4,516 nucleotides of DNA from Escherichia coli (GTDB lineage Bacteria; Pseudomonadota; Gammaproteobacteria; Enterobacterales; Enterobacteriaceae). This document shows, piece after piece, positions 418-4,190 of this stretch (within the stretch, counting starts at the first letter, position 1; every line of letters begins with the position of its first letter). The stretch lies in NCBI RefSeq assembly GCF_003334255.1, contig NZ_QOWU01000108.1; one strand, 5' to 3'. The notes beneath the pieces were generated by a model. It was not told the origin of the DNA. It searched no databases and saw nothing but the letters and a program-made list of their open reading frames with translations. The position numbers were made by a program, and so were the translations under genes.

Positions 418-1446
418 ATGAACCACTCCTTAAAACCCTGGAACACATTTGGCATTGATCATAATGCTCAGCACATTGTATGTGCCGAAGACGAACAACA
501 ATTACTCAATGCCTGGCAGTATGCAACCGCAGAAGGACAACCCGTTCTTATTCTGGGTGAAGGAAGTAATGTACTTTTTCTGGAGGACTATCGCGGCACG
601 GTGATCATCAACCGGATCAAAGGTATCGAAATTCATGATGAACCTGATGCGTGGTATTTACATGTAGGAGCCGGAGAAAACTGGCATCGTCTGGTAAAAT
701 ACACTTTGCAGGAAGGTATGCCTGGTCTGGAAAATCTGGCATTAATTCCTGGTTGTGTCGGCTCATCACCTATCCAGAATATTGGTGCTTATGGCGTAGA
801 ATTACAGCGAGTTTGCGCTTATGTTGATTCTGTTGAACTGGCGACAGGCAAGCAAGTGCGCTTAACTGCCAAAGAGTGCCGTTTTGGCTATCGCGACAGT
901 ATTTTTAAACATGAATACCAGGACCGCTTCGCTATTGTAGCCGTAGGTCTGCGTCTGCCAAAAGAGTGGCAACCTGTACTAACGTATGGTGACTTAACTC
1001 GTCTGGATCCTACAACAGTAACGCCACAGCAAGTATTTAATGCGGTGTGTCATATGCGCACCACCAAACTCCCTGATCCAAAAGTGAATGGCAATGCCGG
1101 TAGTTTCTTCAAAAACCCTGTTGTATCTGCCGAAACGGCTAAAGCATTACTGTCACAATTTCCAACAGCACCAAATTACCCCCAGGCGGATGGTTCAGTA
1201 AAACTGGCAGCAGGTTGGCTTATCGATCAGTGCCAGCTAAAAGGGATGCAAATAGGTGGGGCTGCGGTGCACCGTCAACAGGCGTTAGTTCTCATTAATG
1301 AAGACAATGCAAAAAGCGAAGATGTTGTACAGCTGGCGCATCATGTAAGACAGAAAGTTGGTGAAAAATTTAATGTCTGGCTTGAGCCTGAAGTCCGCTT
1401 TATTGGTGCATCAGGTGAAGTGAGCGCAGTGGAGACAATTTCATGA
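418..1446 (+). CDS. murB: UDP-N-acetylenolpyruvoylglucosamine reductase (peptidoglycan precursor synthesis, FAD-dependent)
   Basis: 342-aa ORF beginning [30 protein letters not shown], recognised as E. coli MurB, which is also 342 aa. Sits immediately upstream of birA as in the known murB-birA arrangement. Confidence 0.95.
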
Positions 1447-2408
1447 AGGATAACACCGTGCCACTGAAATTGATTGCCCTGTTAGCGAACGGTGAATTTC
1501 ACTCTGGCGAGCAGTTGGGTGAAACGCTGGGAATGAGCCGGGCGGCTATTAATAAACACATTCAGACACTGCGTGACTGGGGCGTTGATGTCTTTACCGT
1601 TCCGGGTAAAGGATACAGCCTGCCTGAGCCTATCCAGTTACTTAATGCTAAACAGATATTGGGTCAGCTGGATGGCGGTAGTGTAGCCGTGCTGCCAGTG
1701 ATTGACTCCACGAATCAGTACCTTCTTGATCGTATCGGAGAGCTTAAATCGGGCGATGCTTGCATTGCAGAATACCAGCAGGCTGGCCGTGGTCGCCGGG
1801 GTCGGAAATGGTTTTCGCCTTTTGGCGCAAACTTATATTTGTCGATGTTCTGGCGTCTGGAACAAGGCCCGGCGGCGGCGATTGGTTTAAGTCTGGTTAT
1901 CGGTATCGTGATGGCGGAAGTATTACGCAAGCTGGGTGCAGATAAAGTTCGTGTTAAATGGCCTAATGACCTCTATCTGCAGGATCGCAAGCTGGCAGGC
2001 ATTCTTGTGGAGCTGACTGGCAAAACTGGCGATGCGGCGCAAATAGTCATTGGAGCCGGGATCAACATGGCAATGCGCCGTGTTGAAGAGAGTGTCGTTA
2101 ATCAGGGGTGGATCACGCTGCAGGAAGCGGGGATCAATCTCGATCGTAATACGTTGGCGGCCATGCTAATACGTGAATTACGTGCTGCGTTGGAACTCTT
2201 CGAACAAGAAGGATTGGCACCTTATCTGTCGCGCTGGGAAAAGCTGGATAATTTTATTAATCGCCCAGTGAAACTTATCATTGGTGATAAAGAAATATTT
2301 GGCATTTCACGCGGAATAGACAAACAGGGGGCTTTATTACTTGAGCAGGATGGAATAATAAAACCCTGGATGGGCGGTGAAATATCCCTGCGTAGTGCAG
2401 AAAAATAA
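1443..2408 (+). CDS. birA: Bifunctional biotin-[acetyl-CoA-carboxylase] ligase and biotin operon repressor
   Basis: 321-aa ORF beginning [47 protein letters not shown] (N-terminal winged HTH). Contains the biotin-binding glycine-rich loop GRGRRGRKW (aa 115-123, nt 1785-1811). Length matches E. coli BirA. GGAG Shine-Dalgarno at 1431-1434; start overlaps the murB stop. Confidence 0.95.
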
Positions 2409-2436: not shown

Positions 2437-3387
2437 TTATTTGCGTAGTCTGACCTCTTCTACCGCATGATTAGCACTTTTCGTCAGGATTAAACTGGCG
2501 CGCTCACGAGTAGGTAGAATATTTTGCTTTAAGTTCAGCCAGTTGATCTCTTTCCACAATGTCATGGCAGTCTTAATCGCTTCTTCTTTAGTTAATTTCG
2601 CGTAGTTATGAAAATAGGAATCCGGGTCGGTAAAAGCCCCTTCGCGGAATTTCAGAAAACGGTTGATATACCATGTCTGAAGTAAGTCTTCCGGTGCATC
2701 AACATATATCGAAAAATCGACAAAATCAGAAACAAATACATGATGTGGATCGTGTGGATAATCCATCCCGCTCTGTAAGACATTTAACCCTTCAAGAATT
2801 AAAATATCAGGCTGAACAACCGTTTTATCTCCATCCGGGATCACATCATAAATAAGATGTGAGTAAACAGGTGCTGTAACGTTTGGCACGCCGGATTTGA
2901 GATCGGAAACAAACTTCACCAGGCGATGCATATCATACGATTCCGGGAAGCCTTTCTTCTTCATCAGACCACGTTCTTTCAGAACCTGATTAGGGTGAAG
3001 GAAGCCATCTGTAGTGATCAGTTCAACACGACGATGTTCCGGCCAACGGCTTAATAGCGCCTGCAATACACGGGCGGTTGTACTTTTCCCCACCGCGACA
3101 CTGCCAGCAATACTGATAATGTAAGGAATGCGTTGCCCGTTGGTACCAAGAAACTGTTCCAGAACTGCCTGACGGCGCAGATTCGAGCTTATATAGAAGT
3201 TCAGCAAACGTGACAAAGGTAAATAGATCTCGGCAACTTCTTCTAACGAGAGATCTTCATTAATACCTTTGAGACGGGCGATCTCATCTTCCGATAACGT
3301 CATAGGTACGGAATCACGCAGAGCTGCCCACTGGTTGCGGTCAAACTGTAGGTAAGGCGTCATTAACGTTTGCTCTTTTATACTCAT
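2437..3387 (-). CDS. coaA: Pantothenate kinase (type I, CoA biosynthesis)
   Basis: Minus-strand ORF whose product from [20 protein letters not shown] to AVEEVRLRK is recognised as E. coli CoaA (316 aa). Walker A/P-loop GSVAVGKST at aa 95-103 (nt 3079-3105). The ORF track extends the frame to 3543 (368 aa), but I place the start at the ATG at 3385-3387 (MSIKEQ); the extension is only a stop-free in-frame leader. Confidence 0.9.
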
Positions 3388-3639
3388 AAGCATGTTTCTG
3401 GCGGTCATAGCTCTATCGGCAAAGCGATATTTGCCATGGCGCGTCACAGTTCTGTTGAATGGGTTAATGGGCAGGAGGGTAACACCAGATGGGGAGGAAT
3501 AATAAGAAAAAATCTCTGCCAGGAAGCTATCGTTGAAAAGCAATGTGACAGATATTCCATCTGATAAAAAGAATTATGGTTTAGCAGGAGCGCATTGTTG
3601 AGCACAATGATGTTGAAAAAGTGTGCTAATCTGCCCTCC

Positions 3640-3705
3640 GTTCGGCTGTTTCTTCATCGTGTCGCATAAAATGTGACCAATAAAACAAATTATGCAATTT
3701 TTTAG
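3640..3705 (+). promoter_or_regulatory. AT-rich upstream activating region (UP element / likely Fis-binding region) of the tRNA-tufB promoter
   Basis: Strongly A+T-rich tract (cataaaatgtgaccaataaaacaaattatgcaatttttt) directly upstream of the -35. Stable-RNA promoters, including the thrU(tufB) operon promoter, are known to be Fis-activated through upstream sites. Individual sites were not resolved by eye. Confidence 0.45.
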
Positions 3706-3742
3706 TTGCATGAACTCGCATGTCTCCATAGAATGCGCGCTA
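3706..3742 (+). promoter_or_regulatory. Sigma70 promoter of the thrU-tyrU-glyT-thrT-tufB operon
   Basis: -35 TTGCAT (3706-3711), 17-bp spacer, -10 TAGAAT (3729-3734), then GC-rich discriminator gcgcgc (3735-3740), which is typical of stringently controlled stable-RNA promoters. The predicted start is about 7-8 nt before the first tRNA. Confidence 0.8.
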
Positions 3743-3748
3743 CTTGAT

Positions 3749-3824
<76 letters not shown>

Positions 3825-3832
3825 TCAAGTCC

Positions 3833-3917
<85 letters not shown>

Positions 3918-4033
3918 ATTTCGGCCACGCGATGGCGTAGCCCGAGACGATAAGTTCGCTTACCGGCTCGAATAAAGAGAGCTTCTCTCGATATTCAGTG
4001 CAGAATGAAAATCAGGTAGCCGAGTTCCAGGAT

Positions 4034-4108
<75 letters not shown>

Positions 4109-4114
4109 AGATGT

Positions 4115-4190
4115 GCTGATATAGCTCAGTTGGTAGAGCGCACCCTTGGTAAGGGTGAGGTCGGCAGTTCGAATCTGCCTATCAGCACCA
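4115..4190 (+). tRNA. thrT: tRNA-Thr (anticodon GGU)
   Basis: 76 nt. Acceptor stem gctgata/tatcagc, anticodon stem caccc/gggtg with loop tTGGTaa (anticodon GGT), T-loop ttcgaat, encoded CCA. Begins 6 nt after glyT. Confidence 0.93.

Follow-up and report, generated by a model that had tools for sequence, protein, structure and literature searches.

Among the genes that are translated from two in-frame starts, infB is the classical case, and its isoforms, IF2 alpha and beta, differ in function. The coaA gene of Escherichia coli departs from this example in that the short form of CoaA lacks just a non-conserved tail, its two forms are not known to differ in function, and some relatives do not have the second start; our search found no functional data on the two CoaA forms. 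Closely spaced dual initiation has been described for infA and secB (M1/M9 in both), raiA and pgk (PMC13245402), and coaA likewise has two AUGs on one mRNA, with peptides for both. In its mode of working coaA probably belongs with SD-independent leadered initiation. The mRNAs of that class have A/U-rich, weakly structured start regions and are assisted by ribosomal protein S1; that of coaA carries no Shine-Dalgarno (SD) sequence within 20 nt of M1, and its start region is A-rich and, judging from its sequence, predicted to be accessible.

The promoter finds its analogues in the sigma-70 promoters that combine an extended -10 element with a poor -35 element. In coaA, TG occupies -16/-15, the T, the A and the final T are preserved in the hexamer TACCCT, the transcription start site (TSS) lies 8 positions after that final T, and TTATTA, a 3/6 match, precedes the -10 with an 18-nt spacer. 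Conservation at coaA extends through the discriminator to +2 and includes a T-tract, which exceeds the usual need of a promoter.

The nearest described system is E. coli coaA itself. The stretch of DNA analysed here, 4,516 nucleotides in length and referred to below as the window, corresponds to murB-birA-coaA-thrU of E. coli, and it is 100% identical to E. coli genomes. Locus and M1/M9 starts are the same as in PMC13245402, and the TSS is the same as the one quoted in the Reg-Seq supplement. Nothing differs from the described system, of which the open leader and the ATG at codon -2 are not part. The start of the RefSeq coaA coding sequence (E. coli EC600; MG1655 4174076-4175026) falls on window position 3387, the 316-residue CoaA is identical to PDB chain 1ESM (316 aa), and Pfam domain PF00485 is found on CoaA homologues. 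The gene is also named panK and rts. Features are collected in Table 1; counts of relatives refer to 51 of 80 Enterobacteriaceae loci, compared through alignment, and are not independent since the sequences are phylogenetically related.

We are confident that what the window contains is the ordinary, already described 5' end of E. coli coaA: a transcription start at A3468, an SD-less 5'UTR of 81 nt, starts at M1 and M9, and a leader that is open by chance. Transcription starts at A3468, under a weak sigma-70 promoter that has an extended -10 element (TGT-TACCCT); the conserved block is read as this promoter. The 30S subunits would load on the A-rich, weakly structured, SD-less stretch and start at AUG 3387; a fraction of them would instead use AUG 3363, 24 nt downstream, where a marginal GAG lies some 8 nt ahead of the codon. 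The outcome is a 316-aa and a 308-aa pantothenate kinase, and the frame upstream of M1 is left untranslated in the protein and mostly untranscribed from coaAp.

Table 1. Features of the coaA region, in window coordinates
Feature	Position	Strand	Basis
coaA CDS, type I pantothenate kinase, 316 aa + stop from M1	2437..3387	-	ORF list; RefSeq; Pfam; PDB
M9 AUG, the second of the in-frame starts; yields the short form of 308 aa	3361..3363	-	N-terminal peptide; PDB 1SQ5; conservation
M1 AUG, main annotated start, no SD upstream	3385..3387	-	N-terminal peptide; conservation; SD duplex; predicted unpaired probability 0.79
coaA 5'UTR, 81 nt	3388..3468	-	TSS at 3468
AUG at codon -2 (MLMSIK...), in 5'UTR	3391..3393	-	sequence; usable in 42/51 relatives; no upstream initiation site reported for coaA
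Reported MazF cleavage site: ACA 8 nt from start, overlaps the -2 AUG	3393..3395	-	PMC5001579 Table 1; sequence
AUG at codon -7, in 5'UTR	3406..3408	-	sequence; usable in 14/51 relatives; predicted in stem
Near-invariant block of ~54 nt, read as coaA core promoter	3462..3515	-	51-genome conservation; TSS at 3' edge; footprint
Leader part upstream of TSS, promoter/spacer DNA, not coaAp mRNA	3469..3573	-	TSS; TAA 3576-3574; open lengths in relatives; shuffles

Transcription start and the conserved promoter block

The coaA transcript starts at MG1655 4175107, which corresponds to window position 3468. The Reg-Seq supplement credits this start, mapped by primer extension, to Song & Jackowski 1992, and gives it as the only experimentally validated TSS of coaA. 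From sequence alone, the invariant TGnTAnnnT places the start at 3468/3469. A leaderless mRNA was considered and rejected, the primary TSS lying 81 nt upstream of the AUG. The gene was not found among the rows listed in the Cappable-seq and Kim 2012 supplements. Further upstream lies another sigma-70-like match, TCAACA-17-CATAAT (3601-3573), which, if active, could transcribe the whole leader.

Most of the 5'UTR is hypervariable among genera in both length and sequence (mean identity, 0.45). A scan of the leader for a terminator or attenuator found none, and an Rfam search of it returned only noise (E of at least 1). Hairpins occur upstream of the T-tract in many genera; alifold gave no consensus structure there. 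In 3'-end mapping, the terminator at MG1655 4174046 is the sole coaA entry, with none in the 5' region.

The block inside the leader is of a different kind, with identities of 0.96-0.98 in three 10-nt bins across the 51 genomes, no codon periodicity and unalignable flanks. It consists of the T-tract (3512-3507), the -35-like TTATTA (3505-3500), the 18-nt spacer, TGT (3484-3482), the -10 hexamer TACCCT (3481-3476), the discriminator CCTGCCC and the TSS, A3468. Mixta and Pantoea, which are Erwiniaceae, have kept it as well. TGT-TACCCT and the TSS agree with the extended -10 pattern (TGn, TAnnnT, TSS 6-9 nt downstream), and TGnTAnnnT is invariant in the 51 Enterobacteriaceae and 2 Erwiniaceae. 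Sigma-54, -32, -E and -28 were considered for the block by eye and rejected, their spacing or conservation being unfit. In 5421 E. coli genomes the block occurs as a single copy and bears no annotation, and at blastn sensitivity no second copy that might hint at a regulon was found elsewhere in E. coli.

In Reg-Seq, mutagenesis of the coaA promoter revealed a repressor-like footprint from -37 to +1, for which the Reg-Seq account of this promoter names no factor; our block coincides with that footprint. It is tempting to speculate that the near-invariance of the promoter (-20 to +2, and the T-tract) reflects the operator of a further repressor, a tentative reading that we consider rather unlikely. 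The GGT-N3-ACC core overlapping the -10 element suggests a protein of the GntR/FadR type. The operators of these proteins follow a 17-bp palindromic consensus, aaCTGGTCnGACC(T/A)Gtt (PMC9329746), and FadR sites in the fad promoters overlap the -10 element, as does the candidate site in coaA. In this site, ATCTGGTGTTACCCTCC (3490-3474), the left half is a perfect CTGGT and the symmetry is GGT-N3-ACC; the site agrees with the consensus at 8/12 specified positions, its right half keeps only ACC, and about 0.2 such sites are expected by chance per block (our own estimate), which on its own is chance level. Our literature search found neither a link between FadR and coaA regulation nor any transcriptional regulator of coaA. 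The FadR motif in the coaA promoter is a lead rather than a finding.

Two N-termini and the start region of CoaA

That coaA starts at both M1 and M9 is real and has been documented before. An N-terminomics study of 2026 (TRAINSPOTTER, PMC13245402, Table S2 row 65) assigns it two initiation sites, MG1655 4175026 (window 3387, M1) and 4175002 (window 3363, M9), and coaA is among the 68 E. coli genes for which that study gives two or three sites in frame. M1 is supported by a peptide covering residues 2-17 (SIKEQ...), which fits removal of the Met; M9 is supported by the peptide MTPYLQFDR (residues 9-17), in which the Met is kept (PMC13245402). The initial annotation had mentioned alternative initiation sites in coaA and named a single start at 3387 as the outcome that would speak against them; given two N-terminal peptides, that is not what was found, and the alternative sites turn out to be M1 and M9. 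Both ATGs are in frame and downstream of the TSS. Both chain lengths are also represented in the PDB, by 1ESM (316 aa) and by 1SQ5 (308 aa, aligned to residues 9-316). Residues 1-8 appear to be a dispensable tail, because distant PanK homologues and structures align only from residue 6-10 onward. The main text of the retapamulin preprint does not mention coaA, nor was the gene found among the rows listed in the tetracycline-profiling supplement.

The three ATGs pointed out at the outset, at 3393-3391 (codon -2), 3387-3385 (M1) and 3363-3361 (M9), are all present and in frame, but the list was incomplete: ATG 3408-3406 (codon -7) and GTG 3447 (codon -20) had been overlooked. The cluster goes beyond chance in the sense of being conserved among the 51 Enterobacteriaceae. 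M1 is ATG in 48 of them, and a usable -2 ATG occurs in 42, a conservation as wide as that of M9. At codon 9, ATG is found in 42/51, and 5 more have it at codon 7; the latter arrangement is that of Franconibacter and Buttiauxella, whose ninth codon reads ACG. The second start has no counterpart in the C. freundii group, one Superficieibacter, Mixta and Pantoea.

The 19 nt preceding M1 on the minus strand read gaccgccagaaacatgctt. That M1 lacks an SD, as first noted by eye, is confirmed by calculation: paired with the 16S 3' end, the 20 nt upstream of it form at best a duplex of +0.2 kcal/mol, as compared to -4.3 and -6.4 kcal/mol for the neighbouring murB and birA and a median of -2.2 for all 20-mers in the window. 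At M9 the pairing is weak, at -2.1 kcal/mol, and involves a GAG some 8 nt upstream. The predicted probability of being unpaired is 0.79 for M1, 0.68 for M9, 0.34 for the -2 AUG and 0.01 for the -7 AUG, and A makes up 45% of the sequence around M1. In stability, the 5'UTR fold does not stand out significantly from shuffled sequences (z = -1.43), which makes the structural argument a weak one. Absence of an SD-like motif is documented for 192/806 E. coli initiation sites, and these are A-rich (PMC13245402). A-rich, SD-independent loading may be what selects M1 and M9, and weak signals would keep CoaA scarce; a link between the missing SD and a low translation level, proposed in the initial annotation, is plausible.

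One could imagine a third start at the -2 AUG (3393), used constitutively at a low level or after MazF cleavage and yielding a product that begins MLMSIK. We regard this as improbable. In addition to its usability in 42/51 relatives, CATGCTTATG is conserved, and in Atlantibacter, where M1 has become AAA, the -2 codon is the sole available start. Many database entries are called from it (318 aa), one cluster comprising 1432 members. Furthermore, coaA is listed as a MazF-cleaved mRNA found on polysomes, with the cleaved ACA 8 nt from the coaA start (PMC5001579, Table 1 of that paper); such cleavage would leave an 8-nt leader. On the other hand, GTG 3447, ATG 3408 and ATG 3393 all lie within the UTR, none of the three has a peptide in the published E. 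coli N-terminomics set, and that set reports no coaA initiation site upstream of M1 while containing 17 upstream sites at other genes (PMC13245402). Moreover, the -2 ATG is missing in Kosakonia, Phytobacter, Lelliottia and Pantoea, and its predicted unpaired probability is just 0.34. The MazF specialised-ribosome model itself has been contested.

Somewhat less probable still is that M1 is the only start and that the 308-aa form results from proteolytic trimming after Leu8. The M9 peptide could in principle represent a neo-N-terminus left by a protease; however, the workflow takes only N-termini that obey the initiator-Met rules at start codons and enriches formerly formylated peptides, and the M9 peptide keeps its Met (PMC13245402). 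Trimming would be in line with the marginal SD of M9, which is level with the background median, and with the absence of M9 from the C. freundii group and Erwiniaceae, from which the short form appears dispensable. Yet the codon-7 ATG of Franconibacter and Buttiauxella resembles a second start that has been retained, not a cleavage site. Two coaA translation products, ascribed to two starts, were reportedly described by Song & Jackowski in 1992 (J Bacteriol 174:6411), which also speaks for initiation at both codons.

Coding potential of the DNA upstream of M1

The conserved block might be thought to belong to a gene on the plus strand, either a mini-ORF (3489-3536, plus strand) whose ATG is accompanied by a perfect AGGAGG or a structured RNA. 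The plus strand reads GGGCAGGAGGGTAACACCAGATG, the AGGAGG is invariant in all genomes and the mini-ORF translates cleanly. It was rejected for want of a conserved start codon: Klebsiella, Raoultella and Pseudescherichia have ATT in place of the ATG, Enterobacter sp. Bisph1 has ATA, and the ATG is displaced by one base in Atlantibacter and Pluralibacter and missing in Mixta and Pantoea (CCAGTAAA and CCAGTATA). The length and frame of the ORF vary, without codon periodicity. As for an RNA, the block has neither an Rfam match nor a mapped 3' end. With the mapped coaA TSS and the Reg-Seq reporter footprint accounting for the block, we consider a plus-strand gene very unlikely.

On the coaA strand, the leader was initially taken to be open for 52 codons, up to 3543, and to contribute to the ambiguity of the start. 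The frame is indeed open, but its true extent is 62 codons, closed by TAA 3576-3574, and 3543 is merely the first TTG in it. The leader is not coding; it is open by chance and overlies the promoter and the untranslated region. When the 361-nt intergenic region was shuffled 5000 times with its dinucleotides preserved, at least 62 open codons were obtained in 5.3% of the shuffles and at least 52 in 8.5% (median, 15); with a probability of 0.053, an open frame of this length is not remarkable. Among the 51 Enterobacteriaceae the upstream open length ranges from 2 to 83 codons with a median of 13, 24 of them being closed within 9 codons, and most relatives have stops in the frame or indels whose length is not divisible by three. 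Identities at the three codon positions are 0.91/0.90/0.80 in the coding sequence; for the block they are 0.84/0.81/0.89, and for the remaining UTR 0.42/0.46/0.49. A bias toward synonymous sites, suggested beforehand as a sign of a longer protein, is thus not seen across these genomes. TTG 3543 sits 75 nt upstream of the mapped TSS, so that mRNA contains neither this codon nor 25 of the 52 codons counted in the leader, the codons upstream of -27 being promoter DNA. With this TSS, a frame broken in most relatives and no upstream initiation site, the leader drops out of the question of the start.

That the annotated start is wrong and a longer protein begins at TTG 3543, GTG 3447 or ATG 3408 is already largely refuted and hardly credible. 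In its favour are the 62 open codons, the versions of 368 and 424 aa that automatic gene calling has put into public collections (59 and 71 member sequences) and a promoter-like match (3601-3573) upstream. Against it, that match is one of 2 found where 0.8 are expected, the open frame is at chance level, the TSS rules out TTG 3543, the frame in most genera ends after 2-29 codons (just 21 in E. albertii) and carries indels that are not multiples of three, its third position is not relaxed, the N-terminus SIKEQ... fits M1 minus Met (PMC13245402), and the 424-aa version reads through the thrU tRNA promoter.

These results carry little weight for biology and some for annotation. The combination of a chance ORF and an ATG cluster misleads automatic gene callers, and this one protein is present in public collections with lengths of 308, 313, 316, 318, 325, 368 and 424 aa. 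The sole point worth following up is the unusually conserved promoter block with its repressor-like footprint. If the block did prove to be the operator of a further repressor, CoA synthesis would be controlled at transcription besides feedback inhibition of the enzyme.

Start codons in use at coaA

What the analysis recovers is the already known 5' end of coaA, the gene for pantothenate kinase (CoaA, PanK). Song and Jackowski reportedly described in 1992 two coaA products, of 36.4 and 35.4 kDa, arising from alternate starts, and UniProt presumably holds two isoforms for E. coli CoaA. The region under study matches E. coli chromosomes at 100% identity and occurs in 5421 of 5426 complete genomes. 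Window coordinates convert to those of MG1655 by adding 4171639; MG1655 coaA occupies 4174076-4175026 on the complement strand.

Genes and coaA promoter elements, in window coordinates
Feature	Position	Strand	Source
murB	418-1446	+	
birA	1443-2408	+	
coaA, type I pantothenate kinase	start 3387	-	RefSeq annotation
coaA promoter: T-tract; TTATTA; then 18-nt, more variable spacer	TTATTA 3505-3500	-	
coaA promoter: TGT; TACCCT (extended -10); then CCTGCCC and mapped transcription start (TSS)	TGT 3484-3482; TACCCT 3481-3476; TSS A3468	-	
tRNA genes thrU-tyrU-glyT-thrT	3749-4190	+	

The initial annotation had mentioned a report of alternative initiation sites for coaA, and two can now be named. Table S2 of the TRAINSPOTTER 2026 N-terminomics study lists coaA (b3974) starts at 4175026 and 4175002, offset by 8 codons, each with an N-terminal peptide (residues 2-17, and MTPYLQFDR, residues 9-17) (PMC13245402). 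These positions correspond to window 3387, the RefSeq start (M1), whose Met is removed before Ser, and to window 3363, the in-frame AUG at codon 9 (M9). No upstream start is listed for coaA, though the method detected 17 upstream sites in other genes (PMC13245402). The M1/M9 pattern of coaA recurs in infA and secB in the same table (PMC13245402), and the dual start belongs to a common class, that of closely spaced in-frame starts. The PDB entries for E. coli PanK also include both forms: the chains of 1ESM and 1ESN have 316 aa, and that of 1SQ5, with 308 aa, aligns to residues 9-316. Because alignment with the Coxiella and Mycobacterium PanK structures begins only at residue 6-10, residues 1-8 of CoaA are a non-conserved tail.

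The MG1655 locus tags around 3388-3748 pass from b3974 (coaA) to b3976 (thrU), b3975 being missing from the current annotation of this intergenic region. Read by eye, the promoter of the thrU-tufB tRNA operon lies at 3700-3745 on the plus strand, divergent from coaA and ~270 nt from its TSS, as TTGCAT-17-TAGAAT with an A/T-rich upstream region and a GC-rich discriminator, GCGCGC.

Initiation without a Shine-Dalgarno sequence

The three in-frame ATGs pointed out initially, at 3393 (codon -2, counting upstream from M1), 3387 (M1) and 3363 (M9), are all present on the minus strand; an additional ATG at 3408 (codon -7) and a GTG at 3447 (codon -20) had been overlooked. The claim that M1 lacks a Shine-Dalgarno (SD) sequence also holds: M1 is preceded by gaccgccagaaacatgctt, and the best pairing of the preceding 20 nt with the 16S 3' end amounts to +0.2 kcal/mol, compared with -4.3 for murB, -6.4 for birA and a median of -2.2 for the window's 20-mers. 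M9 has a marginal GAG ~8 nt upstream and a pairing energy of -2.1 kcal/mol.

Loci of coaA were fetched from 80 species, and 51 loci from about 25 genera were aligned over 300 nt upstream and 60 nt of coding sequence each. The resulting counts come from related genomes, and the events are not independent. M1 is an ATG in 48 of the 51 relatives; the other three are Atlantibacter-type sequences with AAA, where the start must therefore be the -2 ATG. The latter is usable in 42 relatives and the -7 ATG in 14. An internal ATG occurs at codon 9 in 42/51; in Franconibacter and Buttiauxella it stands at codon 7, codon 9 being ACG, and three species of the C. freundii group are devoid of any internal ATG. 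Among Erwiniaceae, Mixta and Pantoea lack M9, and Pantoea lacks the -2 ATG too. Judging from these counts, a second start is widespread yet dispensable; only M1 is nearly universal.

A 10-codon, out-of-frame uORF is also present in the 5'UTR (3405-3437, minus strand), its TGA overlapping the -7 ATG (ATGA). It has no SD, and its ATG is confined to Escherichia, reading ATT in other genera inspected by eye.

The coaA transcript combines a leader, no SD and two N-termini. Initiation would be SD-independent and would depend on the start region being A-rich and weakly structured. Around M1, a 33-nt stretch is 45% A and 64% A+U. In the predicted ensemble, the probability of being unpaired is 0.79 for M1, 0.68 for M9 and an intermediate 0.34 for the -2 AUG; the -7 AUG (0.01) and the GUG at -20 (0.02) are buried. 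The whole fold is no more stable than shuffled sequences (z = -1.43), so that accessibility lends weak support to an A-rich, weakly structured start. Since 192 of 806 mapped E. coli starts are A-rich and have no SD-like motif (PMC13245402), coaA falls in a common class. The weak signals at both AUGs would fit a low abundance of the enzyme.

MazF-cleaved mRNAs found on polysomes include coaA, cut at an ACA 8 nt from the start (PMC5001579). An ACA at 3395-3393 overlaps the -2 AUG, and a putative MazF cut would yield a near-leaderless RNA, a conditional route to use of the -2 or M1 AUG. The MazF model is disputed.

A conserved promoter block and the mRNA start

Upstream of the start region lies a block of ~54 nt (3515-3462; in the coaA sense, GATTTTTTCTTATTATTCC-N5-CATCTGGTGTTACCCTCCTGCCCATTGTCC) that is almost invariant over about 25 Enterobacteriaceae genera and recognisable in Erwiniaceae, with unalignable flanks. 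Identity in 10-nt bins is 0.97 (3510-3501), 0.66 (3500-3491), 0.98 (3490-3481) and 0.96 (3480-3471). The block reads as the coaA core promoter, and Mixta (TGTTAACCT) and Pantoea (TGGTACCCT) also retain the TGnTAnnnT motif. From sequence alone, the extended -10 had already pointed to an mRNA start at 3468/3469; Reg-Seq puts the gene's sole experimentally validated TSS at MG1655 4175107, an A at window 3468, and credits a 1992 J. Bacteriol. paper. Reg-Seq assigns the coaA promoter one repressor-like site from -37 to +1 (window 3505-3468) and identifies no factor. A TSS at 3468 gives a 5'UTR of 81 nt (3468-3388).

Conservation through the discriminator to +2 exceeds the usual need of a promoter. 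The block is single-copy and unannotated, and its identity reaches 99% or more in 5386 of the 5421 E. coli genomes; no Rfam family matches it. Within it, ATCTGGTGTTACCCTCC (3490-3474, minus strand) overlaps the -10 and combines a perfect CTGGT half-site with GGT-N3-ACC symmetry. It matches the FadR consensus aaCTGGTCnGACC(T/A)Gtt at 8 of 12 specified positions, by estimate chance level when taken alone, and a literature search for a FadR-coaA link found no paper; as a possible FadR site it is only a lead. The plus strand of the block carries a perfect AGGAGG followed by an ATG and a 15-codon ORF (3489-3536). Coding by this mini-ORF was rejected, since many genera have ATT or ATA in place of its ATG, or have it shifted or missing; the invariant AGGAGG in all likelihood simply mirrors, on the opposite strand, the conserved CCTCCT discriminator.

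Just upstream of the T-tract, many genera (L019-L081) have a hairpin, GTGATGCTTTC...GAAAGCATCAC, in which some changes are compensatory; alifold gave no consensus. E. coli has a different stem, of 7 bp, at 3513-3556 (minus strand; TCTGTCA/TGGCAGA, -10.5 kcal/mol) abutting GATTTTTT. Terminator-like on the coaA strand, this predicted stem could insulate the coaA promoter; no E. coli 3' end is mapped at 3513-3556. Genome-wide 3'-end mapping shows none in the coaA 5' region; the one that it lists is the coaA terminator at 4174046. A predicted sigma-70-like match, TCAACA-17-CATAAT (9/12; 3573-3601, minus strand), precedes the entire open frame. It belongs to a set of 2 such matches, where 0.8 would be expected; its -10 includes the frame-closing TAA, and the region around it is unalignable outside Escherichia.

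The open frame upstream of M1

The coaA frame is indeed open upstream of M1, as initially noted; it extends over 62 codons rather than 52, being closed by a TAA at 3576-3574, and position 3543 is merely the first TTG in it. With the TSS at 3468, this TTG and everything upstream of codon -27 are promoter DNA. The openness of this leader is no more than chance: when the 361-nt intergenic region is shuffled with its dinucleotides preserved, at least 62 open codons occur in 5.3% of shuffles and at least 52 in 8.5%, with a median of 15. Among the 51 relatives the open stretch is 2-83 codons long, and its median, 13, is near that of the shuffles; a stop occurs within 9 codons in 24 of them, and E. 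albertii has 21 open codons.

A longer protein, which synonymous-site-biased conservation of the upstream codons was to reveal, fails this test. Identity to E. coli at the three codon positions is 0.91/0.90/0.80 over codons 1-20 of the coding sequence, the expected third-position relaxation; upstream this relaxation is missing, both in most of the UTR (0.42/0.46/0.49) and in the conserved block (0.84/0.81/0.89). From about -8 to -75 nt, the alignment is hypervariable, and its indels have lengths not divisible by three. The leader is a chance ORF across promoter and UTR.

Public collections contain 308-, 313-, 316-, 318-, 325-, 368- and 424-aa calls of this kinase (proteins P0001, P0002, P0005, P0021, P0070 and P0079, relatives of 2437-3711). 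The 424-aa form comes from strains with CAA for the TAA at 3576-3574, in which the ORF continues into the thrU promoter. These varied lengths are a clear case of start-codon mis-calling due to the chance ORF, a practical nuisance for annotation in public protein collections.
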